Below are positions 33,271 through 45,687 of a DNA stretch of 64,000 nt, piece after piece. The stretch spans positions 3,712,001-3,776,000 of the forward strand of contig OZ241863.1 of NCBI GenBank assembly GCA_965203055.1. The letters run 5' to 3'. A program made the translations under genes and the position numbers. The notes beneath the pieces are model-generated. The model saw nothing but the letters and a program-made list of their open reading frames with translations. It had not been told where the DNA came from and searched no databases. Source of the stretch: Spirochaetia bacterium. Lineage in GTDB: Bacteria > Spirochaetota > Spirochaetia > SZUA-6 > Bin103. Numbering within the stretch: position 1 is the first letter of the stretch; every line of letters begins with the position of its first letter.

Positions 33271-35301
33271 CTACTCGCGGTCGAACCAGAGCTGGTCGGC
33301 CCAGTACATCAGGTTGCCCTTCCAGTCGGTGTTGGAGACCGGAAACTCGGTCGGGACGTTGCGCAGGTCGTTGCTGGTGAGCAGCACCGCCGGCGCCTCG
33401 CCGACGGTACCGATGGCAAACACGTTGTCACCGGTCCAGTCGTACATGCGCTGGGCCAGCTCGAACCACTCTTGGGAACCGAACTCGGAGAGGCGGAACT
33501 GGCGCTGCCACTCGAAGTAGCGCTGCCACTCCTCCGGCGGCTCGGTGCCGGGCAATTCGCCGCCGTAATCCTCCAGCCGGCGCTCGCCGCGCTCCACCGC
33601 CACGCGCGCCGTCTCCCAGATGTCGTAGCTGCCGGCCATGTTGAAGTCGCCGTGCAGGCCGACGCCGCCGGAACCGGCGCCGTCGTTGATCCAGTTCCAG
33701 AACTCGGTAATGGCGTCGATGATTCCCGGCTGCAGCATGAACTCGTCCTGATCCCGATTCTCGCCCCAGGCGGCGTTGTCCACCAGGCGCGGCACCACGC
33801 GCAGATCGACCTCCGCCCATTGCGCGATCTCGATCTCGAACAGCTTGCTGATGTCCACCGAACCGCCGGTGCGGGCGGCGACCTGGATGGTCAGGTTGGA
33901 GCCGTCCGGGAAGGTGCGAAAGCCGTCGCGGTCGCGCCCGTCGAGCCCGATCTCGTCGAGCAGCCGGCCCGCCAGCTCGGGATCGTAGGTCGCCCACAGG
34001 GTCTGCCACTCCGGCTTGTAGAAGCGCGCCCCGGAATGGATCGTGGCCGCGGTCGGGCGGCCCAGGCCGAGGAAGTACACTTCGTTCAACTCGTCGCGGT
34101 CCAGCGCCACCGACATGGCGCGCCGGAAGCGCACGTCCCGGAACAGGTCGCGGTACTTCTCGTCCTTGTAGGTGGGGTTGAAGCCGAAGGCGCGCCCCAC
34201 GTCGATGCCCGGAATCAGGGTGATCTTGTAGTTGCCGCGCTCCTCGTTCTCCTTGTAGTCGGGCAATGACGCGAAGTTGGTCTGCGCGATGGCCCAGTCC
34301 ACCTCGCCGGCGATTGCCTTGAGGTTGAACACCTCCACGTCAGCGTTGGGCGTGGACAGCACGCGGTCGATGTAGGGAAGCTGCTGCCCGGCCGGATCGA
34401 CCTTCCAGAAGTAGGGGTTGCGCTCCCACACTTCGGCCTGCGCGCTGATCTCCTTGGGCGCCCACGGGAACATGGTCGGCGTCTCCAGCAGACCCACGCC
34501 CACCGTGATGTCCCAGTGCGCGATCAACGCTTCCCCCCAGGTTTCGAAGCCTTCTTCTTCGGCCAGCTTCTGGGCGTCCTTGTTGTAGCGGATGTGCCAC
34601 CGCTTGAGGAACGAACTCGGCGCGTACTGCACGTAGTTGCCGCCCTTCCAGGTGGTCCAGCCGGGGATGATGACGTGGTCCTCGGCGGAAAGGTGGAACT
34701 GCATCGTGTAGTCGTCGATCTTGGAGATCCGCGTGGCGGTGGGCGGCGTCTCGTTGGGGCGCCAGCCGGGATCGACGCGGTCGTCCCACTTCAGGTCCTC
34801 CATCACGAACTTGATGTCGTCCACCACGAACGGGTCGCCGTTGGACCACCTGGTGCCCGGCCGCAACTCCAGGGTGACGGTCAGGCCGTCCGCCGACACG
34901 TCGTATCCCTTGGCGATGTTGGGCAGGATTTCGCGCGTCTCCTGGTGCATCTTCAGCAGGTAGATGTCCACTTCCTGGTTGGTCATCTCATGCCCGCGCC
35001 GATTCATGGCGCCGGTGGCATCCGACACCCGCAAGGTGCCGCCATACTTGCCGACGCCGTCGGCGAGCATCTCCTGCACCACCGGTTCGACGGCGATGCG
35101 CTCCTCCAGCGGCGGCAGCTCGCCGGCCGCCACCATGGCCGCCAGCATCGGCGCCTCGCTGAACTGGCCGCTGGCCGCGGTCATGGCGGTCGCGGCGCTG
35201 CCGCCCTGCTCGTCGGCTTCGCCGCCGGCCAGCACCAGGGCCGGCCCCCCCCCTAGCGCCAAACCAAACGCCAGCAATCGCTTCACTACGGTATGCATCA
35301 C
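33271..35301 (-). CDS. family 5 ABC substrate-binding protein (stand-alone)
   Basis: GGAGG RBS; EAPML..V.AGELPP.EER, GKYGG.L, RNPYFWKVD..GQQLPYID, FRRAMSVALDR. Confidence 0.92.
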   Translation of the reverse strand: MMHTVVKRLLAFGLALGGGPALVLAGGEADEQGGSAATAMTAASGQFSEAPMLAAMVAAGELPPLEERIAVEPVVQEMLADGVGKYGGTLRVSDATGAMNRRGHEMTNQEVDIYLLKMHQETREILPNIAKGYDVSADGLTVTLELRPGTRWSNGDPFVVDDIKFVMEDLKWDDRVDPGWRPNETPPTATRISKIDDYTMQFHLSAEDHVIIPGWTTWKGGNYVQYAPSSFLKRWHIRYNKDAQKLAEEEGFETWGEALIAHWDITVGVGLLETPTMFPWAPKEISAQAEVWERNPYFWKVDPAGQQLPYIDRVLSTPNADVEVFNLKAIAGEVDWAIAQTNFASLPDYKENEERGNYKITLIPGIDVGRAFGFNPTYKDEKYRDLFRDVRFRRAMSVALDRDELNEVYFLGLGRPTAATIHSGARFYKPEWQTLWATYDPELAGRLLDEIGLDGRDRDGFRTFPDGSNLTIQVAARTGGSVDISKLFEIEIAQWAEVDLRVVPRLVDNAAWGENRDQDEFMLQPGIIDAITEFWNWINDGAGSGGVGLHGDFNMAGSYDIWETARVAVERGERRLEDYGGELPGTEPPEEWQRYFEWQRQFRLSEFGSQEWFELAQRMYDWTGDNVFAIGTVGEAPAVLLTSNDLRNVPTEFPVSNTDWKGNLMYWADQLWFDRE

Positions 35302-35374
35302 TGCACCTCCTCCTCGGCTGGTTTCCCCCTGTTATCGGGTAAGCGTGACAGGCTACGATACCGATGGTTCAGAG

Positions 35375-37105
35375 ATGCGGTCAACCATTCGTTTCGCGGG
35401 TCTCGCCGGCGCCGCCCGCGCGGCGCCGGGATTGGCGCGCGCGGCGCTGTTCGGCGTTGCGGCGCTGTTCGGCGCCGCGGCCTGCGCTTCCCTGGCGCGG
35501 GACCCGGCGCCCGGCGGCGGCGCCCCGGTAACGGTCGCCGCGTTCCCGCTGGCGGCCGGGCAGTGCGGCGGCGGCTTCGCCGCCCTGGACCTGCCGCACG
35601 AGATCGAGGTCGCCTCGCCGCGGGTGTTCAACTACGACTCGCTGGGCGCCGGACTGGCCGCCGGCGACCTGGACAACGACGGCGACGTCGATCTGGCGCT
35701 GGCCAACCTGGACGGCCCCACGGCGCTGTTGTGGAACGAGACCGCGCCCGGCGGAGCGCTGCGCTTTCGCCGCCGCGACCTGACCGACGCCGCCTCCAGC
35801 AAGCCCACCAGCGCCGTCCTGGCGGTCGACGCCAACGCCGACGGCTGGCTCGACCTGGCCCTCACCCACACCAGCCGGCCGCCCACCTTGTGGCGCAACG
35901 AGCCGCGCGCCGGCGGCGGCGGCCGCACCTTCGTGCGCGATCCCGACTTCGCGGCCGGCTACTTCGCCCACGTAATGGATTGGGCCGATCTGGACGCCGA
36001 CGGCGATCTGGACATCGTTACCGCCACCTACGACTACCTGCTGGCCAAGGAGTTCGGCGGCTTCATCCCCGGCGGAGGAGTGGCCTACTACGAGAACCGC
36101 GGCGCCGGCCTGCTGCCCGCGCTGCTCACCTCCGGCGCCGACGCGCTGGCCGTGCTGGTGACCGACCTGGACGGCGACGGCAGCCGGGAGATCATCATCG
36201 GCAACGACTACGCGCGGCCGGACTACGTCTTCACCCGCAGCGCCGCCGCTCCTCCGCCGGGCTGGGCCGAGATCACGCCGCTGGCCGCCACTCCCACCAA
36301 CACCATGAGCTACGCCGCCGGCGACGTCGACAACGACGGCCGCCCGGAATTGTTCGCCGCGGACATGAAGCCGTACCGGGACGACGCCGAGACCCGCGCG
36401 GCCTGGGGCGGCCTCGCCGGCGGGGCGCCGCCCGATGCGGTGCAGACCGACGCCAACGTGCTGCTGGCGGCGGGCGGCGACGGCAGCTACCGCGACCGCG
36501 CGCCGGAGGCGGGGGTGGATGCGACCGGCTGGAGCTGGTCGGCCAAGTTCGGCGACCTGGACCAGGACGGGAACCTGGACCTGTACGTCGTCAACGGGGT
36601 GATCACGGTCGAGGTGTTCGGCCACCTGCCGGGCGATGAGCTGGTGGAGGAGAACCAGGCCCTGCGCGGCGACGGCCGCGGCGGCTTCACTGCGGTACCG
36701 CAGTGGGGTCTGGGCAGCACCCGCAGCGGGCGCGGCATGAGCATGGCCGACCTGGACGGGGACGGCGACCTGGACATCGTGGTGAGCAACCTGCGCGCGC
36801 CGTCGCAAGTGTTCGAGAACCGGCTGTGCGGCGGGGGCGGCGGCCTGCTGGTCGACCTGCGCCAGCCCGGCACCCCCAACACCCACGCCGTCGGCGCGCG
36901 CGCCGTGCTGGTGACCGCGGCCGGGGTGCGGCAGAGCCGCGTGGTGCGCGCGCAGAGCGGCTATCTGTCGGGCGACCCCAGCCGCCTGCACTTCGCCGTT
37001 CCGGCCGGCGACGCCCCGGCCCGGCTGGAGATTACCTGGCCGGACGGCGCGCGCTCGGTGGTGAACGAGCCGGCCGCGGCGCGGCTGGAAGTGACCCGCC
37101 GGTGA
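35375..37105 (+). CDS. CRTAC1-family protein (FG-GAP/VCBS repeats + ASPIC/UnbV domain), probable lipoprotein
   Basis: Repeated D.D.DG..D motifs; C-terminal AVGARA..V..QSGYLS..LHF..LEITWPDG; AAC lipobox. Confidence 0.88.
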   Translation: MRSTIRFAGLAGAARAAPGLARAALFGVAALFGAAACASLARDPAPGGGAPVTVAAFPLAAGQCGGGFAALDLPHEIEVASPRVFNYDSLGAGLAAGDLDNDGDVDLALANLDGPTALLWNETAPGGALRFRRRDLTDAASSKPTSAVLAVDANADGWLDLALTHTSRPPTLWRNEPRAGGGGRTFVRDPDFAAGYFAHVMDWADLDADGDLDIVTATYDYLLAKEFGGFIPGGGVAYYENRGAGLLPALLTSGADALAVLVTDLDGDGSREIIIGNDYARPDYVFTRSAAAPPPGWAEITPLAATPTNTMSYAAGDVDNDGRPELFAADMKPYRDDAETRAAWGGLAGGAPPDAVQTDANVLLAAGGDGSYRDRAPEAGVDATGWSWSAKFGDLDQDGNLDLYVVNGVITVEVFGHLPGDELVEENQALRGDGRGGFTAVPQWGLGSTRSGRGMSMADLDGDGDLDIVVSNLRAPSQVFENRLCGGGGGLLVDLRQPGTPNTHAVGARAVLVTAAGVRQSRVVRAQSGYLSGDPSRLHFAVPAGDAPARLEITWPDGARSVVNEPAAARLEVTRR

Positions 37106-38787
37106 GCGCCGCCGCCCGCGCGGCAGCGCTGGGGCTGGCGCTGCTGCTGGCGGCCTGCGCCTCGCTCCCGCCCGGCGCGGACCTCACGGCCCCGCCGCCC
37201 TACACGGTCACTCCCCTCGCCGCGCCGGCGGCGTGCAGCGGCGGCTTTGCCGCCCGCGACCTCGACCACCGCATCCAATGGCTGGGCGGGCGCATCACCA
37301 ACTTCGATACCATCGGCTCCGGCCTCGCCGCCGGCGACCTGGACGACGACGGCGACCTCGATCTGGTGCTCGCCAACCTCGCCCGGCCCGGCACGGTGTA
37401 CTGGAACGACGGCGCGCTGCGCTTCCGCGCCGAGCCGCTGGCCACCGGCGCCGCGCGCGGCGTGAACGCCATCGACTTCGACGGCGACGGCTGGCTCGAC
37501 CTGGCCTTCACCCATCCCGCGGCGCCGCCCTCGCTGTGGCTCAACCAGGGCGCCGCGGCCGCCGCCGGCGCCGCGGCCCGCGACCGGTTCCAGCGCGTGG
37601 CGCGGCTGGGCGCCGGCTACGTAGCCAACGCCATGGGCTGGGCCGACCTGGACGGCGACGGCGACCTCGATCTGGTCACCGGCAGCTACAACAGCGAGCT
37701 GCCGGCGGTGAGCGCGGGCTTTGCCATCGGCGGCGGCGTGGCCTACTACGAGAACCGGGGAGAGCGCCTGGCCCTGACCGTGCTGGCGCCGACCGCCGAG
37801 GCGCTGGCGGTGCTGCTCACCGACCTGGACGGCGACGCGCTGCTCGACATCGTGGTAGGCAACGACTACGACCATCCTGACCAGGTCTTCCTGCGCGACC
37901 CCGCGGCCGAACACGGCTGGCGGGCGGCGCCGCTGTTCCGGGCCACCGCCACCAACACCATGAGCTACGACGCCGGCGACGTCGACAACGACGGCCGCCC
38001 GGAGCTGTTCGCGGCCGACATGAAGCCGTACCGGCGCGACCCGGCGGTGAGCTACGCCTGGGAACGCATCACCATCCTGCCGCCGCCGGACGACGTGCAG
38101 ACCAACGAGAACGTGCTGCTCATCCCCGGCGGCGCGGCCGGGGCCGCCGCCTACGACAACGACGCCCCCGCGCGCGGCGTGGACGCCACCGGCTGGACCT
38201 GGTCGGCCAAGTTCGGCGACCTCGACAGCGACGGGTTTCTCGACCTGTACGCGGTCAACGGGATGATCGACTCGCTGGTGTTCGGCCACCTGCCGGGCGA
38301 CGAGCTGGTGGAGGAGAACCAAGCCCTGCGCAACCGCGGCGACGGCACCTTCGAGCCGGCGCCGCAGTGGGGGCTGGGCAGCGAACGCAGCGGCCGCGGC
38401 ATGAGCATGGCCGACCTGGACGGCGACGGAGACCTGGACGTGGTGGTCAGCAACATGCGCCGGCCGTCGCAGGTATTCGAGAACCGTATCTGCGGCGGAT
38501 CCAACCTGCTGGTCGACCTGCGCCAGCCCGGCACCCGCAACACCCACGCCATCGGCGCGCAGGTGACGTTGACCGGCGAACACGGCGGCGCGCCGTTGCG
38601 CCTGCTGCGGGAAGTGCGCTCCCAGAGCGGTTACCTGTCCGGCGACCCCAGCCGCCTGCACTTCGGCATCCCGCGCGGCGCCGCCCTGCGCCGCCTGCAG
38701 ATCCGCTGGCCCGACGGCACCCTGTCCGCCATCCCGAACCCCGCCGCCGGCACCCTGATCAGCGTCACCTACCCCCCTGAACCGTAG
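37102..38787 (+). CDS. second CRTAC1-family protein, tandem paralogue, probable lipoprotein
   Basis: GTGA overlap; LAAC lipobox; same architecture with long near-identical DNA blocks. Confidence 0.88.
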   Translation: MSAAARAAALGLALLLAACASLPPGADLTAPPPYTVTPLAAPAACSGGFAARDLDHRIQWLGGRITNFDTIGSGLAAGDLDDDGDLDLVLANLARPGTVYWNDGALRFRAEPLATGAARGVNAIDFDGDGWLDLAFTHPAAPPSLWLNQGAAAAAGAAARDRFQRVARLGAGYVANAMGWADLDGDGDLDLVTGSYNSELPAVSAGFAIGGGVAYYENRGERLALTVLAPTAEALAVLLTDLDGDALLDIVVGNDYDHPDQVFLRDPAAEHGWRAAPLFRATATNTMSYDAGDVDNDGRPELFAADMKPYRRDPAVSYAWERITILPPPDDVQTNENVLLIPGGAAGAAAYDNDAPARGVDATGWTWSAKFGDLDSDGFLDLYAVNGMIDSLVFGHLPGDELVEENQALRNRGDGTFEPAPQWGLGSERSGRGMSMADLDGDGDLDVVVSNMRRPSQVFENRICGGSNLLVDLRQPGTRNTHAIGAQVTLTGEHGGAPLRLLREVRSQSGYLSGDPSRLHFGIPRGAALRRLQIRWPDGTLSAIPNPAAGTLISVTYPPEP

Positions 38788-38875
38788 CCGGCAAGCCCGC
38801 ACCGGCGGACACCCACACTCGCAGCGCACCGAGACCAGCTTGCGCCGCGGTCGCCGGTCCGGCATCGTAGTGCTC

Positions 38876-40189
38876 ATGGCACAGCCATTTGAGCCTCCGC
38901 GCGACATCTGGGAGGTCAACCGGACCATGCACGTCAATGAGCCGCTGGACGGCGACCGGGACCCGCGCTGGGTGGATACCGAACCGGCACGCGGTGAGTA
39001 CAGCCTGAATGAACTGTGTCGAACGCTGGGAGTGGACCGTTCCAGGCGGGAACTGACGGCGCCCGACGACGGCTACTACCTGTTCTGCGGCCATCGCGGC
39101 AGCGGCAAGAGCACCGAGCTGCGGCGCATTGCCCGTGAGCTCCACGACGAAACGCTCTACTACGTGGTGTTCGCCGACACCGCGCAAGAACTCGACGTCA
39201 ACAACCTGCGGTACCAGGACGTCCTGCTTCACCTTGCCGGCAAGCTCATGGCACGACTCGATCGCGATAGTGTTCCTGTTGAACAGGTATACCTGCGCAA
39301 GCTCCAGGACTGGTTTACGGAGCGCGTCGAAAGAACAGAACATACCAGAGCGTTCGCGCTGGATGCGAAGGCAGGCATCAGTGCCACGGTAGGACTCCCT
39401 TTTCTGGCCAAGGTATTCGCGCATATCAGCACTGCGTTCAAGACCAACACGACGTACAAGGCTGAACTGAGACGTACGCTGCGTAACAACTTCAGCGACT
39501 TCTCGGAGGGATTCAATCAAATCATCAGCGCCGCCGAAGCCAAAATCGGCCGCCGGATATTGTTCGTGATCGACGGCACCGATCGTCTCGGCGGCGATGA
39601 CGCGCAAGCGTTCTTCGTCGCGGACGTGCATCAACTGCAGCAGGTGCATGGCGTGTTCGTGTATTGCGCACCGGTCCACCTGGCTTACGAGGGCAATAAC
39701 ATCAGGCAGAACTTCAAAGAAATCTTCCGATTGCCGATGATCAAAGTTGCAAACGACGACGGATCTCGGCATGCTGAAGGGTATACGGCGATGCGGGAGA
39801 TGCTGCATCGGCGCGCGGCTCCCGAACTATTCGATAGCGGCGTCGCCGACCTTCTGATCGAGCATAGCGGAGGTCATCCGCGTGATCTGCTGCAACTCTT
39901 GCTGAAAGCTCACTCACACGCCGAGCACGACCGTTTCGATGATACCTCGGCTCGTCAAGCGGTGCGCAAGCTGGCGACTGAATACCGGCGCATCCTGACG
40001 GCGGACGACTATCAACTTCTGGCAAGGATCGACGCCACCCCTCAAACCCCGCCAAGCTCCGAGCGCGTTCGCGGGTTGCTCTACAACCTGGCACTGTTGG
40101 AGTACAACGACTTCTACTGGCGCAGCCATCCCGTCATCCGGACGCTGCCGGCATACGAGGCCGCGCGTAGAGCCGTCACCGATGAGTGA
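38876..40189 (+). CDS. STAND-like P-loop ATPase
   Basis: Walker A GHRGSGKS, Walker B ILFVIDGTD, helical GxP motif SGGHPR, C-terminal winged-helix-like LALLEY..HP. Confidence 0.8.
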   Translation: MAQPFEPPRDIWEVNRTMHVNEPLDGDRDPRWVDTEPARGEYSLNELCRTLGVDRSRRELTAPDDGYYLFCGHRGSGKSTELRRIARELHDETLYYVVFADTAQELDVNNLRYQDVLLHLAGKLMARLDRDSVPVEQVYLRKLQDWFTERVERTEHTRAFALDAKAGISATVGLPFLAKVFAHISTAFKTNTTYKAELRRTLRNNFSDFSEGFNQIISAAEAKIGRRILFVIDGTDRLGGDDAQAFFVADVHQLQQVHGVFVYCAPVHLAYEGNNIRQNFKEIFRLPMIKVANDDGSRHAEGYTAMREMLHRRAAPELFDSGVADLLIEHSGGHPRDLLQLLLKAHSHAEHDRFDDTSARQAVRKLATEYRRILTADDYQLLARIDATPQTPPSSERVRGLLYNLALLEYNDFYWRSHPVIRTLPAYEAARRAVTDE

Positions 40190-42236
40190 AGCCGGTACCG
40201 CATGGCCGCTCCGTTCGGAGCACTCCGGAACACTGCTGCAGCTGCGCCGGACGATAGCAAACAGGCGATCGTTTACCCTCTGCTTCCTGACCTATTCCGA
40301 CAGCACCTATCGCGACATCGTGGCTGCCTTTCTGGCCGACCTGCTGGGGGCGCGGCTGCGCGTGACCATAGATCGTGATATTCGGATCGGCACCGAAGAC
40401 CTGTTCGAACGCCTGAGCGACCCGGCGCACGACGGTCCGGTACAGGTCAGCGGCCTGGAACGGTGGCCGGAAGGTCTGAATAACCTGTTGCAGCGGTTGA
40501 ACTATCGCCGGGAAGCGTTGGCCGCGCGCTGCCGGCGTCCGTTGCTAGTGTGGATTCGGAACCGCGACGTGACCGCGGTAGCGACCGGCGCCGCAGATCT
40601 CTGGGCTTGGCGTTCCGGGGTGTTTGATTTCTTGCTGCCTGCGTCTGCCGATAGTGTCGATCCCCTGCCAACGAGGATGAATCTTCTTACGGCGAATGAA
40701 TCCAAACGCCGCGAACGTCTGGATGAATTGCAGCTATTTTTCGAGTCACGCTCGCCATTACGGCCAGTGGACGTCGACTTGCTGCTTGAGCTCGGCGACT
40801 TGCAGCGATCCATCGGCCAACCGGACGAGGCGGAGCGCTCCTACTCGCGTGCCCTTACGGAGCTGTCAAGCATGGACGACCGCCGGCGTCGGGCCACCGC
40901 TCGGGGGCGGATAGCCGACCTCCTGGAAACCCGAGGCGAATTGGACGAGGCACTGCGCATCCGCACCGACGAACAACTACCGGTCTACGAACGTCTGGGA
41001 GACGTACGGTCGCTAGCTATCACCAGGGGCAAGATCGCGGACATCCTGCAAACCCGCGGCGAACTGGGCGAGGCATTGCGCATACGTACCCAAGAGGAAC
41101 TCCCCGTTTACGAACGTCTGGGTGACACCCGATCGCTGGCTATCACCAAGGGTGAGATCGCCGACATCCTGCAAATGCGCGGCGAACTGGACGAGGCTCT
41201 CCGCATACGCACCGAGGAACAACTGCCGGCATTCAAACACCTGGGGGACGCACGCTCCGTAGCCATTACCAAGGGCCGGATCGCCGACATCCTGGAGCCA
41301 CGCGGCGATCTGGACGAGGCGCTGCGCATCTATACCGAAGAACAACTGCCGGTGTTCGAACGCCTAGGGGACGCGCGCTCCGTGGCCGTCATCAAGGGCC
41401 GGATCGCCAACATCCTCCAGGCGCGCGGCAATCTGGACGAGGCGCTCCGCATACGCACCGAGGAACAACTGCCCGTCTACGAACGTCTGGGAGACGTACG
41501 GTCGCTGGCTATCGCCAAGGGCAAGATCGCCGATATCCGGCAAACCCGCGGCGATCTCGACGAGGCGCTGCGCATCTATACCGAAGAACAACTGCCGGTG
41601 TTCGAACGCCTAGGGGACGCGCGCTCCGTGGCCATCACCAAGGGCCGGATCGCCAACATCCTCCAGGCGCGCGGCAATCTGGACGAGGCGCTCCGCATAC
41701 GCACCGAGGAACAACTGCCCGTCTACGAACGTCTGGGAGACGTACGATCGCTGGCTATCGCCAAGGGCAAGATCGCCGATATCCGACAAGCCCGCGGCGA
41801 TCTAGACGAGGCGTTGCGCATACGCACCGATGAAGAGATTCCTGTTTACGAACGTCTGGAAGATTTGCACTTGCTGGCCATTACCAAGGGCCAGATCGCC
41901 GACATCCTGCATATGCGTGGTAACCTGGGCGAAGCGCTACGCATACGCACCGATGAGGAGATCCCCGTCTACGAGCGGCTCGGTGACGCGCGATCGCTGG
42001 CCATCACCAAGGGTCAGATCGCTGACATCCTGCAGGCGCGCGGCGATCTGGATGAGGCGCTGCGCATACGCACCGATGAGGAGATCCCCGTCTATGAGCG
42101 CTTGGGTGACAAGCAATCGTTGGCCGCGGCCAAGGCGCAAGTCGCGCAACTCCGGCAGGCGCTCTCACGAACCCGCGAGACGCCGCCCCGGACGAGCAGG
42201 GCGGCAGCGGATACCCCTACCCCGGCGCGTGGATAG
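40182..42236 (+). CDS. TPR-repeat protein with a degenerate NTPase-like N-terminal domain
   Basis: Overlaps the ATPase stop; LNYRRE..PLLVW..ADLWAWRSGVFDF with no Walker A; ten 41-aa TPR-like repeats. Confidence 0.85.
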   Translation: MSEAGTAWPLRSEHSGTLLQLRRTIANRRSFTLCFLTYSDSTYRDIVAAFLADLLGARLRVTIDRDIRIGTEDLFERLSDPAHDGPVQVSGLERWPEGLNNLLQRLNYRREALAARCRRPLLVWIRNRDVTAVATGAADLWAWRSGVFDFLLPASADSVDPLPTRMNLLTANESKRRERLDELQLFFESRSPLRPVDVDLLLELGDLQRSIGQPDEAERSYSRALTELSSMDDRRRRATARGRIADLLETRGELDEALRIRTDEQLPVYERLGDVRSLAITRGKIADILQTRGELGEALRIRTQEELPVYERLGDTRSLAITKGEIADILQMRGELDEALRIRTEEQLPAFKHLGDARSVAITKGRIADILEPRGDLDEALRIYTEEQLPVFERLGDARSVAVIKGRIANILQARGNLDEALRIRTEEQLPVYERLGDVRSLAIAKGKIADIRQTRGDLDEALRIYTEEQLPVFERLGDARSVAITKGRIANILQARGNLDEALRIRTEEQLPVYERLGDVRSLAIAKGKIADIRQARGDLDEALRIRTDEEIPVYERLEDLHLLAITKGQIADILHMRGNLGEALRIRTDEEIPVYERLGDARSLAITKGQIADILQARGDLDEALRIRTDEEIPVYERLGDKQSLAAAKAQVAQLRQALSRTRETPPRTSRAAADTPTPARG
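40902..42131 (+). repeat. 10 x 123-nt intragenic tandem repeat
   Basis: Unit about KGxIADILQxRGxLDEALRIRTxExLPVYERLGDxRSLAIT; 41301-41546 is nearly identical to 41547-41792. Confidence 0.95.
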
Positions 42237-42240
42237 CTAG

Positions 42241-42936
42241 CTACCTGAGTTCGGCGGCGGTTTGGAGCTGGGCGGCCGGTTCCTGGCCGAGGCGGCCGCG
42301 CCAATGCCCGGCAAGTATTCGGTTGCGCGCCACGCACTGGTCCACGAGCCGCGGGGCCAACTCGCTGCTGAGCAGGCCGTACCAGTCGCCGGCCGGGTAG
42401 GCGATAAGGCATCCGGCGAAGCGGTGGCCGCCCACGTGGCTGGAGCGGCGCACGGTCACTTGGTGGAGGCCGCGTTCCGCGAGCTCCCGCTCGACCGCGG
42501 CGGCCAGCTCCGGCCCCTGGTCGCCGCAACGCTGGTCGCGCGCGGCATGCACGCATACGAACAGATGGTGGCCGGTGAGCGGCTCGCTGATGAGGCGAGT
42601 CGAAGTCCTGCCGCCCAGCAGATGGTCCTCCACCAGCGCGGCAAGGTCCGTCTCCGGGCGGTCGGCGCCCACGGCGCAATAGCGCACCATGTCGGGGAAC
42701 ACCAGCACGTCGTGGCCGCGCGCGGCCGTGTTGCCGGTAGCGGCGGTGACCTTGACGTCACCGAGGCGGTCAGCATGGTCCGCAACCGCGGCCAGCAACG
42801 CGCCGGGCAGGCCATCCGCCTGGTCGAGATGCGACGGCCAGTCGGCCTGGGCGGTGAGCACCACCACGTGGCGCCGGTACAGCTTGACGGTGCCGGCGAG
42901 CTGCTCCTCGCCGGCGCCGTTCTGCAGGTCACTCAT
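42241..42936 (-). CDS. sucrase/ferredoxin-like (Apd1/Aim32-type) [2Fe-2S] thioredoxin-like protein
   Basis: VCVHAARDQRCG (C-x8-C), SHVGGHRFAG, WYG, HWRGR. Confidence 0.85.
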   Translation of the reverse strand: MSDLQNGAGEEQLAGTVKLYRRHVVVLTAQADWPSHLDQADGLPGALLAAVADHADRLGDVKVTAATGNTAARGHDVLVFPDMVRYCAVGADRPETDLAALVEDHLLGGRTSTRLISEPLTGHHLFVCVHAARDQRCGDQGPELAAAVERELAERGLHQVTVRRSSHVGGHRFAGCLIAYPAGDWYGLLSSELAPRLVDQCVARNRILAGHWRGRLGQEPAAQLQTAAELR

Positions 42937-43047
42937 CGGCAACAAGTGAGCCGGCCGCGCCGCTTCCTGTCAATGGCGCGCAACGGCGGTATCCTGGGTC
43001 ACCAGTTGCCGCGCCACGTGCGCCGGCCGCGATGGAGGCGCCCGCCG

Positions 43048-43971
43048 ATGGCCGATCATCAGTTCGTTCCCACCACGTATCACACCACGCTCGGTCCGCA
43101 TGACCCGGTACTTACCATCGAATCGGGCGATCGAGTTGCCACCACCACCGTAGATGCCTACGGCTGCGACGCGGCGGGAGACGAGGTCACCCCCGCCGGC
43201 AATCCTCAGACCGGGCCGTTCCGGGTAGCCGGCGCCGCGCCGGGCGACACCCTGGCGGTCCACCTGGAGTCGATTCGCCCCAACCGCGCCCGCGGCTACA
43301 CCAAGAGCTGGGTAGCGCCCAACGTGCTCGATCCCGGCTCGCCCACCCTGCCCGCTGACCTGCCGGAGCGCATCGAGTGGGCCGTAGACGCCGGCGCCGG
43401 CTGCGCCGCTCCCTTGGAGGTGCCCGGCCTGGAACGCTGGCGGCTGCCGCTGGCGCCGATGATCGGCTGCTTCGGCGTGGCCCCGGAGCGTCAGCAGGCG
43501 ATCTCCGCCGCCACCTCCGACCGCCACGGCGGCAACATGGATTGGAACGGCTTCCGCGCCGGCGTCACCGCCCTGTTTCCGGTGTTCGAGCCCGGCGCCC
43601 TGTTCTCCCTCGGGGACGTGCATGCCGTCCAGGGCGACGGCGAAATCGTCGGCACCGGCATCGAGATCTCCGCCGACGTGGTGTTCCGCGTCGAGTTGCT
43701 CAAGGGCCGCGCCATCGGCTGGCCGAGGGCGCAGTCGCCGGCCTTCATCGCCGCCCTGGGCAACGCCCGTCCCCTCGACCAGTGCGTGCAGCACGCCACC
43801 ACCGAAATGCTGCGCTGGCTGGCGGAGGACTACGGCCTCGACCGCCACTTGGCCCACGTCGTCCTCGGCCAGGCCGCCGGCTACCAGCTCGGCAACATGT
43901 TCGACCCCGCCTACACCATGGTCTGCACCCTCGCCAAGCAGGTACTCAATGCCATCACCTCCGGCGCCTGA
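43048..43971 (+). CDS. acetamidase/formamidase family protein
   Basis: GGAGG + ATG at 43048; NPQTGP..V.GA.PGD.L, HGGNMD, GDVHA.QGDGE. Confidence 0.9.
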   Translation: MADHQFVPTTYHTTLGPHDPVLTIESGDRVATTTVDAYGCDAAGDEVTPAGNPQTGPFRVAGAAPGDTLAVHLESIRPNRARGYTKSWVAPNVLDPGSPTLPADLPERIEWAVDAGAGCAAPLEVPGLERWRLPLAPMIGCFGVAPERQQAISAATSDRHGGNMDWNGFRAGVTALFPVFEPGALFSLGDVHAVQGDGEIVGTGIEISADVVFRVELLKGRAIGWPRAQSPAFIAALGNARPLDQCVQHATTEMLRWLAEDYGLDRHLAHVVLGQAAGYQLGNMFDPAYTMVCTLAKQVLNAITSGA

Positions 43972-44063
43972 ACCCGCAGCGCGCACAGACTGCCGCTTGC
44001 AAACCGCCGTCCCTATGGTGTTATGCTGCAATCGATCCCAGATCGTTTCGAGGGACTAAGCAC

Positions 44064-45071
44064 ATGCCAAGCGAAAAAAGCCTGCACCTTCCGCAGCTAG
44101 CGATAAGTGGGTTCCGCGGTATCAACGAGCTCTTGATTCCACGGCTGGGCAGAGTGACGTTGCTTGCTGGAAAGAACAGCGTCGGAAAGACGACCGTGTT
44201 GGACGCCGTTCGCGTCTATGCATCTCGGGGCCGCTACTCCGTCCTGCGCGACCTCTTGCGGGACCGGCAAGAGCTCACCGAATCAACCGATCAAGACGGG
44301 GACATCTCAGTTGACCTCGACTGGATGTCTTTGTTCCATGGTCGGTATTCGAAGGTGCAAGGAGAAATCATCATCGGCCCTAACGACGCAGAATATCACC
44401 TCGAGATACACGCGGCCGACACATCTCTACATCACGCTGACCCTACAGTGACTATCAAGCCTATATTTCGGAATAAAGAAGATAAAATGCCACCATCAAT
44501 GACCTGTGAATATCTGGGACCGGGTAGGTTAAACGAGGGCCAAATGTCACATCTCTGGGACAGTGTCGCACTGACTGATGATGAGAACCGCGTACGGAAC
44601 GCTCTTGATTTGGTTATAGGAACAGATGTAGTAGGTGTCGCGATAGTAGGAGAATCGAGGTCTGTGAGAGGAGCCCGTCGCGCGATTGTCAGACTGAAGA
44701 GCCAAGATCATCCAGTCCCATTAAAGAGTCTGGGAGATGGTGCGGTACGGCTGTTTGGCGTTGCGTTGGCGTTGGCTAACAGCCGCGGAGGATTTCTGCT
44801 TATCGACGAGGCCGAGAATGGCATCCACCACACTGTTCAGCGAGCCCTCTGGACCATGATCCTTCGTGCGGCACACGAGAATGACGTACAAGTGCTGGCC
44901 ACGACACATAGTTGGGATTGTGTGAGAGGCTTTGCCCAAGCTGCTACGGACTTCGAACACGGCGAAGGTGTTCTGGTCCGTCTCGAACGAGACAACGGAG
45001 AACTGCGGGCTATCGAGTATTCAGAAGAAGACCTCAGGATTGCGGCAGAGCATGGCATCGAGGTGAGGTGA
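44064..45071 (+). CDS. ABC-type ATPase (AAA_15/AAA_21-like)
   Basis: GFRG, GKNSVGKTT, LGDG, LLIDEAENGIH, TTHS; lower GC; extended -10 TGtTATGCT at 44019-44027. Confidence 0.88.
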   Translation: MPSEKSLHLPQLAISGFRGINELLIPRLGRVTLLAGKNSVGKTTVLDAVRVYASRGRYSVLRDLLRDRQELTESTDQDGDISVDLDWMSLFHGRYSKVQGEIIIGPNDAEYHLEIHAADTSLHHADPTVTIKPIFRNKEDKMPPSMTCEYLGPGRLNEGQMSHLWDSVALTDDENRVRNALDLVIGTDVVGVAIVGESRSVRGARRAIVRLKSQDHPVPLKSLGDGAVRLFGVALALANSRGGFLLIDEAENGIHHTVQRALWTMILRAAHENDVQVLATTHSWDCVRGFAQAATDFEHGEGVLVRLERDNGELRAIEYSEEDLRIAAEHGIEVR

Positions 45072-45072
45072 G

Positions 45073-45687
45073 TTGCTCAATACTGACGCATCATCTCGCG
45101 TATTGCTAGTCGAGGGCACCGACGACGAACACGTTGTCAGACATTTCTGTCAACGTATCGGATCGATACCTCTCTTTCAGATAATTGACAAACGGAGCAT
45201 AAGGCCTCTCCTCGATACGATCAGGCTGGAGGTCCGGGCTCCCGGACGAGAAGTACTAGGCATATTGGTAGACGCTAATGACCGCCCGCAGGATCGCTGG
45301 CGAGCAGTCGCTGATCGATTGCAACGAGCTAACGTAGCAACGCCCGACAAGCCCGATCCGGCAGGCACGATCATCGACAGCGCACCGCGTGTCGGCATCT
45401 GGTTGATGCCGAATAATCAGGAGTCGGGCGAACTGGAAGACTTCGTTGCCAGGATGATCCCAACGAACGATACCGTGTGGCCGTTGTCGGAGAAGTACGT
45501 CAACGGCATACCGAACGACGCTCGCAAGTTCAAGCCGGGCAAGACTCTCAGAGCCAGGGTTCACTCCTGGCTTGCCACTCGGGAGGAGCCGCGGAAGATG
45601 GGAGCGGCGATCGGGGCCGGAGATCTGAACGTTGCCGCGCCGGAGGCGGTTCGGTTCGTGGAGTGGCTGCGGCGGCTCTTTGGTTGA
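45073..45687 (+). CDS. TOPRIM-like protein (DUF3226-like)
   Basis: LLVEGTDD, ILVDAND, GIWLMPNN..G.LEDF. Confidence 0.8.
   Translation: MLNTDASSRVLLVEGTDDEHVVRHFCQRIGSIPLFQIIDKRSIRPLLDTIRLEVRAPGREVLGILVDANDRPQDRWRAVADRLQRANVATPDKPDPAGTIIDSAPRVGIWLMPNNQESGELEDFVARMIPTNDTVWPLSEKYVNGIPNDARKFKPGKTLRARVHSWLATREEPRKMGAAIGAGDLNVAAPEAVRFVEWLRRLFG

Follow-up and report, generated by a model that had tools for sequence, protein, structure and literature searches.

The window analysed here is a 64,000-nucleotide (nt) stretch of the genome of a Spirochaetia bacterium (GenBank assembly GCA_965203055.1, contig OZ241863.1, positions 3,712,001 to 3,776,000), and all coordinates below count from its first letter. 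On its forward strand it carries a cassette of two overlapping genes, the first encoding a predicted switch-type P-loop ATPase and the second encoding a protein with a Walker-less AAA+-like N-terminal domain (the dead domain below) followed by an array of tetratricopeptide repeats (TPRs). An earlier note on this DNA had described the pair as a candidate NLR-like conflict system split over two genes. Comparison with other genomes suggests instead that the ATPase and the dead domain form a constant unit, to which the TPR array of the window is attached as one of many tails. The cassette is composed of the following features.

38840-42172, forward strand: span of the two-gene cassette, as delimited by DNA homology with other genomes (blastn)
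38876-40189, forward strand: gene 1 open reading frame (ORF), 437 amino acids (aa) from ATG, stop-free translation
39089-39115, forward strand: Walker A motif GHRGSGKST, gene 1 residues 72-80
39557-39583, forward strand: Walker B strand ILFVIDGTD, gene 1 residues 228-236, with the strand at 228-233 in the model
39869-39886, forward strand: GGHPRD, a GxP-type motif with an arginine in the lid, gene 1 residues 332-337
40182-40189, forward strand: 8-nt overlap of the gene 1 stop and the gene 2 start, ATGAGTGA
40182-42236, forward strand: gene 2 ORF, 684 aa, with the dead AAA+-like N-domain, a linker, the TPR array and a short low-complexity tail
40182-40646, forward strand: gene 2 residues 1-155, Walker-less AAA+-like alpha/beta domain, the constant module (AlphaFold2 model, Foldseek)
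40905-42134, forward strand: gene 2 residues 242-651, ten tandem 41-aa TPR-type repeats of about 80% mutual identity (Tandem Repeats Finder, TRF)

The limits of the cassette were drawn from a blastn comparison of window positions 30000-52000 with 80 fetched loci. An alternative TTG start at 38840 would lengthen gene 1 by 12 codons; its homologues start at the ATG instead. The GC content is 0.58-0.63 across 39000-41999, against 0.71-0.77 across 35000-38999 and 0.70-0.72 across 42000-43999, and the coordinates, the 8-nt overlap and this fall from flanks of at least 0.70 agree with the earlier description of overlapping genes in a lower-GC block. A promoter scan, which is uninformative for the host organism, returned no sigma-70-like site in 38500-42600.

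The Walker A, Walker B and GxP-type motifs that had been read in gene 1 are present and are invariant or almost so in alignments of 24 and of 65 homologues. Within the Walker A motif, G72, H73, G75, G77, K78, S79 and T80 are invariant in both alignments, and the pattern is found in all 65 gene-1 sequences versus none of the 65 gene-2 N-domains. In the larger alignment F230 and D233 of the Walker B strand are invariant, with L229, G234, T235 and D236 conserved in at least 90% of the sequences, and the lid motif has invariant G332, G333 and R336 and a P335 that is kept in at least 90%. The consensus forms among the homologues are GHRGxGKST for Walker A and ILFVxDGTD for Walker B, and an N-terminal DPRWVDTxxARG motif is conserved as well. 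At least 741 relatives of about 440 aa were found in a collection of 5.8 billion proteins, almost none of them named, and the 120 matches listed exhibit 59-93% identity to gene 1. The mean column identity across phyla is 50%.

Profile libraries assign gene 1 to nothing more specific than the AAA ATPases. Pfam returned the generic models AAA_22 (E 2.7e-8) and AAA_16 (E 8.3e-8), and its STAND models scored under their cut-offs (NACHT 24.0 bits, cut-off 26.7; nSTAND_NTPase5 20.6 bits, cut-off 34), with no match of NB-ARC at E <= 1. The best PADLOC-DB 2.0.0 model was mad8 (E 0.003, 15 bits), which is no usable match, and in NCBIfam 20.0 the Sll1717-family ATPase model reached 40 bits (cut-off 75) and DS41_1 14.6 bits (cut-off 370). 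A sequence profile search of the PDB gave only matches local to the P-loop, the best being a thymidine kinase (E 3e-4).

The AlphaFold2 model of gene 1 (pLDDT 91.9, pTM 0.90) is composed of an AAA+ core, a helical insertion (residues 113-224), a lid (300-373) and a C-terminal winged helix (376-436). The insertion, of about 110 aa, is placed between strand 2 and the Walker B strand, and the N-terminal stretch of about 60 aa has no assigned domain. The polypeptide stops after the winged helix at 437 aa, and the repeats reside in gene 2. Structural matches to the model are led by PAB2304, an archaeal ATPase_2 protein (Z 14.3), TnsC (Z 14.3), Orc1/Cdc6 (Z 14.2), Drosophila ORC1 (Z 13.9) and SSO1545, also an archaeal ATPase_2 protein (Z 13.6), and extend to the plant NLRs WRR4A and ZAR1 (Z 13.2 and 12.2), MalT (Z 10.8), RdrA (Z 10.7) and CED-4 (Z 9.8). 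Foldseek identified BrxC, RdrA, Cdc6, TnsC and RuvB. The language-model neighbours of gene 1, most of them cyanobacterial or from Myxococcota, are P-loop NTPases about 430-480 aa long, and KAP_NTPase is found on 12-95% of the members in its nearest clusters. Because of these motifs, the model, the fold matches and the language-model neighbours, gene 1 is predicted to be an active switch-type ATPase of the ORC/Cdc6-STAND-KAP neighbourhood. The modelled fold does not separate it as a STAND protein from its ORC and transposase-ATPase neighbours. The label STAND-like that the earlier note gave to gene 1 is fair on the model and the fold matches; on this evidence gene 1 cannot be assigned to a named STAND family. 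The further statement that gene 1 has no sensor or effector domain holds as far as Pfam sees generic AAA models only, and leaves out of account the N-terminal stretch and the insertion, both of unassigned role.

The most hydrophobic stretch of gene 1 (39371-39439, residues 166-188) lies within the insertion and reads AGISATVGLPFLAKVFAHISTAF, conserved as GLPFLxxxFA. Its top 19-mer (166-184) has a Kyte-Doolittle value of 1.41, compared with a family median of 1.04 and a maximum of 1.56; by hydropathy alone the insertion therefore falls below the rule of thumb of 1.6 for a transmembrane segment over 19 residues. The stretch coincides with the lowest-confidence region of the model, and a membrane-facing helix, vestigial or amphipathic, is one possible reading of it. 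One metagenomic relative of 1034 aa (P0381) matches gene 1 across core residues 4-286 (59% identity) and carries an unrelated helical region of about 750 aa that replaces the lid and winged helix, with neither the dead domain nor the 41-aa repeats. This protein could be a recombinant or a different ATPase architecture.

The N-terminal domain of gene 2 gave an AlphaFold2 model with a pLDDT of 85.2 and a pTM of 0.72, and was aligned with 65 homologous N-domains that are 18-84% identical to the copy in the window. Five strands alternate with helices over residues 12-150. Foldseek returned 29 matches at E <= 1e-3, the listed ones being AAA+ proteins (CbbX, ORC, NSF-D2, MuB, RFC), of which the top matches have E values of 6e-5 to 1e-3 and TM-scores of 0.4-0.5. 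In the VIA structure search, all 50 rows listed were AAA+ or related ASCE ATPase domains (Z 8.5-10.8, root-mean-square deviation 3.0-5.8 A, 122-152 residues aligned). The nucleotide-binding motifs are gone: the Walker A pattern [AG]x4GK[ST] is found in none of the 65 N-domains, the P-loop position instead reads [YF][NS]D[SP]xYR and the Walker B position hhh[GD]LExW, and a canonical arginine finger could not be placed, the residues after strand 4 being unconserved. Other residues are kept, with F31, N107, R110, W124, D139, W141 and W143 invariant in the 65 sequences. The N-terminus of gene 2 is thus predicted to have an NTPase (AAA+) fold that is catalytically dead by sequence, and the reading of it as NTPase-like, made before any structure was modelled, is borne out by Foldseek and VIA.

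No match to gene 2 residues 1-195 was found in Pfam, PADLOC or NCBIfam, and the PDB sequence profile search with the dead domain gave nothing under E 0.3. The dead domain was also considered as a paralogue of gene 1; hhalign aligned the two with a probability of 24.5% and out of register, and paralogy is therefore unsupported.

The TPRs begin at about residue 198 in Pfam (TPR_12 E 3e-28, TPR_MalT 2e-19), which places them behind the Walker-less domain in the order that had been described, and the repeats also draw weak SNAP-like Pfam matches. PADLOC returned TPR-driven models only. TRF identified a 123-nt period with 9.5 copies and a 76% match over 40910-42076. The ten units follow one another at exact 41-aa spacing, and the variation between them is concentrated at unit positions 2, 8, 9, 12, 22, 34 and 40. 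Fast change of the repeat number, through unequal recombination of the 123-nt array, is suggested because close relatives range from 526 to 776 aa in total length: among proteins with N-domains about 84-85% identical, the lengths are 526 aa (P0124), 672 aa (L073), 684 aa (window) and 776 aa (P0123). The 65 gene-2 proteins have between 0 and 13 of the 41-aa repeats each (median 6).

A pattern scan of one genome per species in 185,579 species gave 559 matches; a relative of gene 1 is encoded at 493 of them, and the statistics of pairing rest on the best 80 of these 493 loci. A gene-2 N-domain was identified by phmmer immediately 3' of the gene-1 homologue and on the same strand in 64 of the 80. 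A profile search of the open frames at the other 16 loci added 11 at E <= 1e-7 and one weak match, where 147 nt of contig are left, for a total of 75 loci, or 76 counting the weak match. At the remaining four, the contig ends 15 nt past gene 1 (L052), the dead domain is missing (L035, L060) or gene 1 is read through into another gene (L056). The start and stop overlap in 50 of the 64 loci, most commonly by 4 nt (15 loci) or 8 nt (15 loci). The pairing of the two genes is far beyond chance, and the conservation of the pair, on which the earlier proposal hung, is plain. No third conserved gene emerged from all-versus-all clustering, where the next commonest neighbour cluster is present in 7 of the 80 loci; clusters in 55, 32, 18 and 18 loci were treated as shadow ORFs inside genes 1 and 2, being in other frames or strands within the gene coordinates as judged on the example members shown.

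No polypeptide fusing gene 1 to gene 2 was found in the 80 loci, and a search among longer relatives, which is a weak one, gave the single match P0381 with its unrelated tail. The read-through at L056 (6986-10278, in a Methylovulum metagenome-assembled genome, MAG) was examined as a possible fusion of the pair and rejected: this 806-aa ORF runs from gene 1 into a PDC-M38A-like AAA_15/21 ATPase and is followed by a DUF3226 protein, with no homologue of gene 2. It may be an assembly or frameshift artefact.

The dead domain extends well beyond proteins of the kind found in the window. Its profile matches at least 4,593 cluster representatives (50% identity) at E <= 1e-3, 1,663 at E <= 1e-10 and 253 at E <= 1e-30, and in 149 of the best 150 matches the domain is N-terminal. 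Among 15 locus proteins with few or no 41-aa repeats, 12 have tails of other TPR types, one has SpoIIE/PP2C (L023), one has nSTAND_NTPase5 and TIR before it is cut by the contig end (L059) and one has no recognisable tail (L038). Of 37 representatives without the 41-aa repeat, 20 were examined; their tails are TPR in 13, SpoIIE in two, receiver (REC) with SpoIIE in one, REC in one, Metallophos in one and none in two. In some TPR forms DUF6166 closes the protein. Cyanobacterial plasmids carry distant gene-1 homologues (23-28% identity) with a gene for a giant protein next in line, and in Acaryochloris pMB06 (L082) these two genes overlap by 4 nt. The first ~150 residues of the giant protein match the dead domain (hhalign 95.8%, E 6.8e-9), and the rest encodes an active nSTAND1 NTPase and WD40 repeats. 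Because the dead domain heads such varied proteins, the TPR array appears to be an interchangeable tail rather than merely a sensor that gene 1 has shed, and the conserved unit is probably the gene-1 ATPase plus the dead AAA+ domain. The tails range over TPR types, PP2C, receiver, metallophosphatase, nSTAND5-TIR and nSTAND1-WD40. The proposal that switch and sensor are separate proteins stands in so far as the ATPase and the TPRs are in two genes; in the form of one NLR divided into a switch and its sensor it is not supported, the TPRs being one of many exchangeable tails.

The cassette is a self-contained, horizontally mobile and accessory two-gene unit. Blastn aligned it with the nearest locus, in another Spirochaetia MAG (L073), at 84.1% identity over 38840-42172, with L001 at 78.9% over 38875-42134, and with loci in gammaproteobacterial MAGs at 67-72%. 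Among the eight closest loci listed the flanks are unmatched, save for a 152-nt match of L001 to 43119-43268. The 80 loci come from Spirochaetia, Gammaproteobacteria, Acidobacteriota, Dehalococcoidia, Myxococcota, Nitrospirae, Desulfobacterota and other taxa. The host genome has a single copy, and a match to the cassette is present in 12 of 41 related genomes. The same genus contributes 6 of its 10 genomes, just 3 of these with a full-length match, and a sister genus of the same family contributes 5 of 13; the 17 genomes from the order's other families have none. One congener (L084, G010:C1:3702000-3709000) retains at the syntenic site a remnant of gene 1 that covers residues 1-97 and 301-435 (67-71% identity), gene 2 is gone, and the genes PDC-M38A/B follow about 125 nt after the remnant, then a Suc_Fer-like gene; the order of blocks at this site differs from that of the window. 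In another congener (G001) both genes are intact (69% and 68% identity) and are located elsewhere in the genome. The flanks of the cassette are ordinary genes, including one for an SBP_bac_5 solute-binding protein, and on the downstream side are a Suc_Fer-like protein and an acetamidase/formamidase. Directly upstream, at 34964-38787 on the forward strand, lie two tandem paralogous FG-GAP_3/FG-GAP/UnbV_ASPIC genes (E 2e-36 and 4e-38), of which related genomes hold many partial copies.

By architecture, the closest described analogue of the pair is the nSTAND2 two-gene operon (Kaur, Iyer, Burroughs and Aravind, eLife 2021, PMC8195603), a comparison that rests on domain layout and not on sequence. 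As described in the available part of that paper, nSTAND2 is likewise a mobile bacterial two-gene operon, with a first gene for an active STAND-type NTPase that bears a winged helix-turn-helix (wHTH) and a second that starts with a motif-eroded NTPase module followed by TPRs and variable modules, and its authors proposed a hetero-multimer of active and inactive NTPases. The inactive module of nSTAND2 is there said to retain the wHTH and to end in HEPN or GT4; gene 2 differs in lacking all three, the wHTH being absent from the model of residues 1-195 and HEPN and GT4 from the Pfam matches. Its dead domain is an alpha/beta core of about 155 aa alone, unlike the inactive module set out in that text. 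The hosts listed there are Pseudomonas, E. coli, Rhizobium, Sorangium and Nannocystis, whereas the pair of the window is found in other taxa, and a tblastn search of 72,556 plasmids with gene 1 gave no relatives from Rhizobium or Pseudomonas.

The ternary systems built on iSTAND and iSTAND2 (Kaur et al. 2020, 2021) also combine a constant, inactive STAND-like module with variable effectors, which in the accessible text include TPR, receiver, TIR and phosphatase domains, and these systems are enriched in bacteria of complex lifestyle. A MoxR-vWA pair is described there as their basis, and neither MoxR nor vWA is a conserved neighbour at the 80 loci; Pfam models of the iSTAND kind gave no match to gene 2 at E <= 1. 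The pair was judged not to be one of the ternary, GAP1, NucA or EACC1 systems as these appear in the part of Kaur et al. 2020 at hand. EACC1 was rejected as the constant module, being presented in that part as a domain with a single transmembrane helix. Single-chain Avs and bNACHT proteins, as covered in the accessible text of PMC13581612, resemble the pair in a P-loop domain like a nucleotide-oligomerisation domain (NOD) with lid and winged helix, in TPR-type repeats, which are their commonest sensor, and, as the likely logic, in activation by oligomerisation. An Avs protein is a single chain headed by its effector, whereas in the window the ATPase and the repeats are separate, would be joined through the dead AAA+ domain and come without an effector. 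In further contrast to Avs, no Avs or NACHT model passes its threshold, and the repeats are near-identical units and not a unique sensor fold.

Two more families invite comparison. True KAP NTPases carry transmembrane helices in the insertion of their NTPase domain. Gene 1 resembles them in its large insertion between Walker A and Walker B and differs in that hydropathy places no clear transmembrane helix there. It scores 10.9 bits with the KAP model (PF07693, cut-off 20), the distant homologue from L082 passes with 24.4 bits, and one homologue on a plasmid bears the NCBI label 'KAP family NTPase'. The origin recognition complex (ORC) and the clamp loaders, whose subunits rank high in the fold searches with both proteins, likewise combine an active ORC/Cdc6-like ATPase with a motif-less AAA+ domain. 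They may serve as a mechanistic analogue only, differing in that the pair has no replication context, is accessory and mobile, and has no placeable arginine finger in the dead domain. Taken across these systems, the pair looks like an uncharted version of the NTPase-centred conflict systems with active/inactive NTPase pairs. No paper describing it was found, and the name 'Sll1717' is absent from the literature searched. The available supplements of PMC13581612 contain none of MYH29655, Sulfidibacter, NC_013194 and CP071793, where the clade may appear under another identifier.

Binding between the two proteins was likely beforehand, because the genes are linked in genomes. Complex prediction for gene 1 with gene 2 gave a median score of 0.48 (runs 0.52, 0.48 and 0.43) with 0.00 for the best control; the runs share at least 88% of their contacts, and the partner has a pLDDT of 76. 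Of 157 solved complexes 116 attained the mark of the method, as did 2 of 215 mismatched pairs, and at scores of 0.60 or below stand only 18 of the 157 solved complexes together with both mismatches that passed. The check by complex modelling thus came out above its control and weakly suggests physical binding.

A mechanism can be proposed on this basis, in which the ligand, the output and the immune role are what we infer. Gene 1 would be the constant switch, predicted to be catalytically competent, and gene 2 would combine the constant dead AAA+-like domain with a variable C-terminal module, the pair probably being translationally coupled. The dead domain may dock onto gene 1 through an AAA+-type interface, by analogy with ORC, the clamp loaders and the proposal for nSTAND2. 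The TPR array would bind a ligand, most likely a protein or peptide of the invader, and ligand on the tail would alter the contact of the dead domain with gene 1. The ATP state of gene 1 would then drive assembly of a hetero-oligomer that activates or concentrates the tail, and that in the enzymatic variants would gather the C-terminal enzymes. For TPR-only forms such as that of the window, the output would presumably be non-enzymatic, whether sequestration or scaffolding by the array, engagement of DNA by the winged helix or action through an unlinked partner. It is possible, and put forward tentatively, that the dead domain is a heterotypic AAA+ docking tag and the whole an adaptor pair for bacterial NLR-like immunity, in which a common KAP/ORC-like ATPase recruits or licenses the carriers of the tag. 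Its role might then, with the same reserve, be like that of Death-fold or TIR adaptors elsewhere, with the TPR-only form of the window as a minimal version.

The broader claim, that the two genes form an NTPase-regulated conflict (immune-type) module of two proteins, is given about an even chance on sequence and genomic context. In its favour are the TIR and STAND-WD40 tails, the lower GC content, the patchy and transferable distribution and the decayed copies of the cassette. The metallophosphatase tail of one relative (P0347) is closest to DS-8 and DS-9A (E 3e-18 and 5e-15; 65 and 55 bits), far under the respective NCBIfam cut-offs of 790 and 420 bits. Both are described as validated anti-phage proteins in the available text of the DefensePredictor study (Science 2026, PMC13092281), in which DS-8 couples a metallophosphatase to a NACHT NTPase and protects against phage. 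This likeness concerns a variant tail in another organism and not the locus of the window.

The immune-type reading is also touched by what lies near the cassette. A PADLOC candidate pair, PDC-M38A/B, is located 1.8 kb downstream of gene 2 on the forward strand (44064-45687). Gene 1 adjoins PDC-M38 in three cases, namely the window, the G010 remnant and the L056 fusion, and this adjacency may stem from a link in function or from a hotspot of insertion common to both. Credible PADLOC models were found no more than two genes from the cassette at 7 of the 33 loci examined (MTase_II, HNH/mREase_IV, E1-E2 with an AriA/GajA-like ATPase, PDC-S01 twice, HEC-01 and DUF499). Matches at four loci were discounted as generic: L001 (RtcR-like NtrC), L007 (UvrD), L020 (radical SAM) and L038 (Lon).

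Several side observations concern these neighbours. The interval 44064-45687 is a second, separate low-GC block (0.53-0.55). Its first protein is an AAA_21/AAA_15 ATPase of 335 aa (PADLOC PDC-M38A E 8e-79, AbiLi 2e-43), and 1 nt past its stop begins a DUF3226 protein of 204 aa (Pfam E 4e-51, PDC-M38B E 7.5e-36). In a congener (G008) the acetamidase and Fpg genes are about 216 nt apart with nothing matching the block between them, which suggests an empty site of PDC-M38. In one Azotimanducaceae MAG (L013:3566-6865) a ThiF+JAB (E1-E2-like) gene and an AAA_15/21 ATPase are directly upstream of gene 1, and in another (L016:11276-11884) a DUF4276/HEC-01 protein (E 2e-54) is downstream of the cassette.

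A number of results weigh against an immune-type role. The defence-island signal is modest, because no credible defence model lies within two genes at 26 of the 33 loci and the neighbours are mostly housekeeping genes. The constant parts have no family-level match in PADLOC, NCBIfam or Pfam, and tblastn of 50,697 phage records gave no relative. The conservation of gene 1 is unusually high for a defence gene. The window copy encodes no enzymatic effector by Pfam or PADLOC, as the earlier note had seen, and no PADLOC model covers the pair. Its TPR units are near-identical and consensus-like; characterised Avs proteins have idiosyncratic sensors, unlike such units. Receiver and PP2C tails are also classic modules of non-immune signalling, and the complex prediction speaks for binding only weakly.

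Some of the same results would fit a signalling switch with no part in immunity, in which gene 1 is a MalT-style STAND or ORC-like nucleotide switch and gene 2 an adaptor with an output or scaffold module, together regulating some process of the cell, for example partner-switching, the response to stress or development. This is a serious alternative of lower probability. Receiver and SpoIIE/PP2C tails are typical of partner-switching, the neighbours of the cassette are mostly housekeeping genes, gene 1 is under strong purifying selection, MalT is among its fold matches (Z 10.8), and 391 of 589 STAND clades are counted as non-defence in the available part of PMC13581612. Such a switch accords poorly, however, with patchy presence within the genus and decayed copies, with spread across phyla at 67-84% DNA identity between unrelated flanks, and with a cassette in a lower-GC block. 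No anti-sigma antagonist, regulon or other target gene is conserved nearby, the repeated adjacency to PDC-M38 also counts against it, and the TIR, nSTAND-WD40 and DS-8-like metallophosphatase tails point to immunity.

A strict split of one NLR by gene fission, with gene 1 as the NOD, the TPRs of gene 2 as the sensor and the N-domain between them vestigial, would explain the NOD-like three-tier architecture and GxP-type motif of gene 1, the TPR_MalT-type repeats in the next gene and the tight overlap. It is nevertheless improbable. The N-domain has seven invariant residues in 65 sequences and a confident fold, which is not what a vestige would look like, and it is carried by at least 4,593 clusters whose tails include complete active STAND NTPases. 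It has no detectable paralogy to gene 1, and the 80 loci and the weak search of longer relatives yielded no fusion of the two genes. The dead domain precedes many tail types, and therefore a constant ATPase core plus a variable module fits better than a split NLR; that part of the earlier note, one receptor divided in two, is set aside on the same grounds, the missing fusions being weak evidence. Hardly likelier is a pair that takes no part in conflict with invaders, be it a selfish, addiction-type mobile cassette or a chaperone or assembly pair in the style of NSF and SNAP. The two genes do travel together as an independent unit, the structures that resemble the dead domain include NSF D2 and further remodelling AAA+ proteins, and the TPRs draw the weak SNAP-like matches. 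Yet no integrase, transposase or toxin-like domain belongs to the conserved unit, the decayed copies show that its loss is tolerated, and the best matches of gene 1 to ORC, TnsC and STAND proteins over classical AAA proteins argue against a pore-loop architecture of the remodelling type.

If the immune-type reading of the pair is true, the two genes would represent a large unannotated two-protein family, with relatives of gene 1 at 493 places in the genomes of 185,579 species. They would extend the NLR/STAND theme, the dead AAA+ domain being a portable docking tag that brings swappable modules to one ATPase, and if the docking-tag reading holds, this domain, with at least 4,593 clusters, would be the widespread constant core of a new class of two-component immune systems. 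The cassette of the window would then offer a tractable, enzyme-free model of two genes and about 3.3 kb for signalling by active/inactive NTPase pairs, and a model for how TPR-only 'effector-less' systems act, and the two proteins would provide two profiles new to current defence-annotation libraries. Should the pair be a non-immune switch, it would still be an uncharacterised and widely transferred regulatory module.

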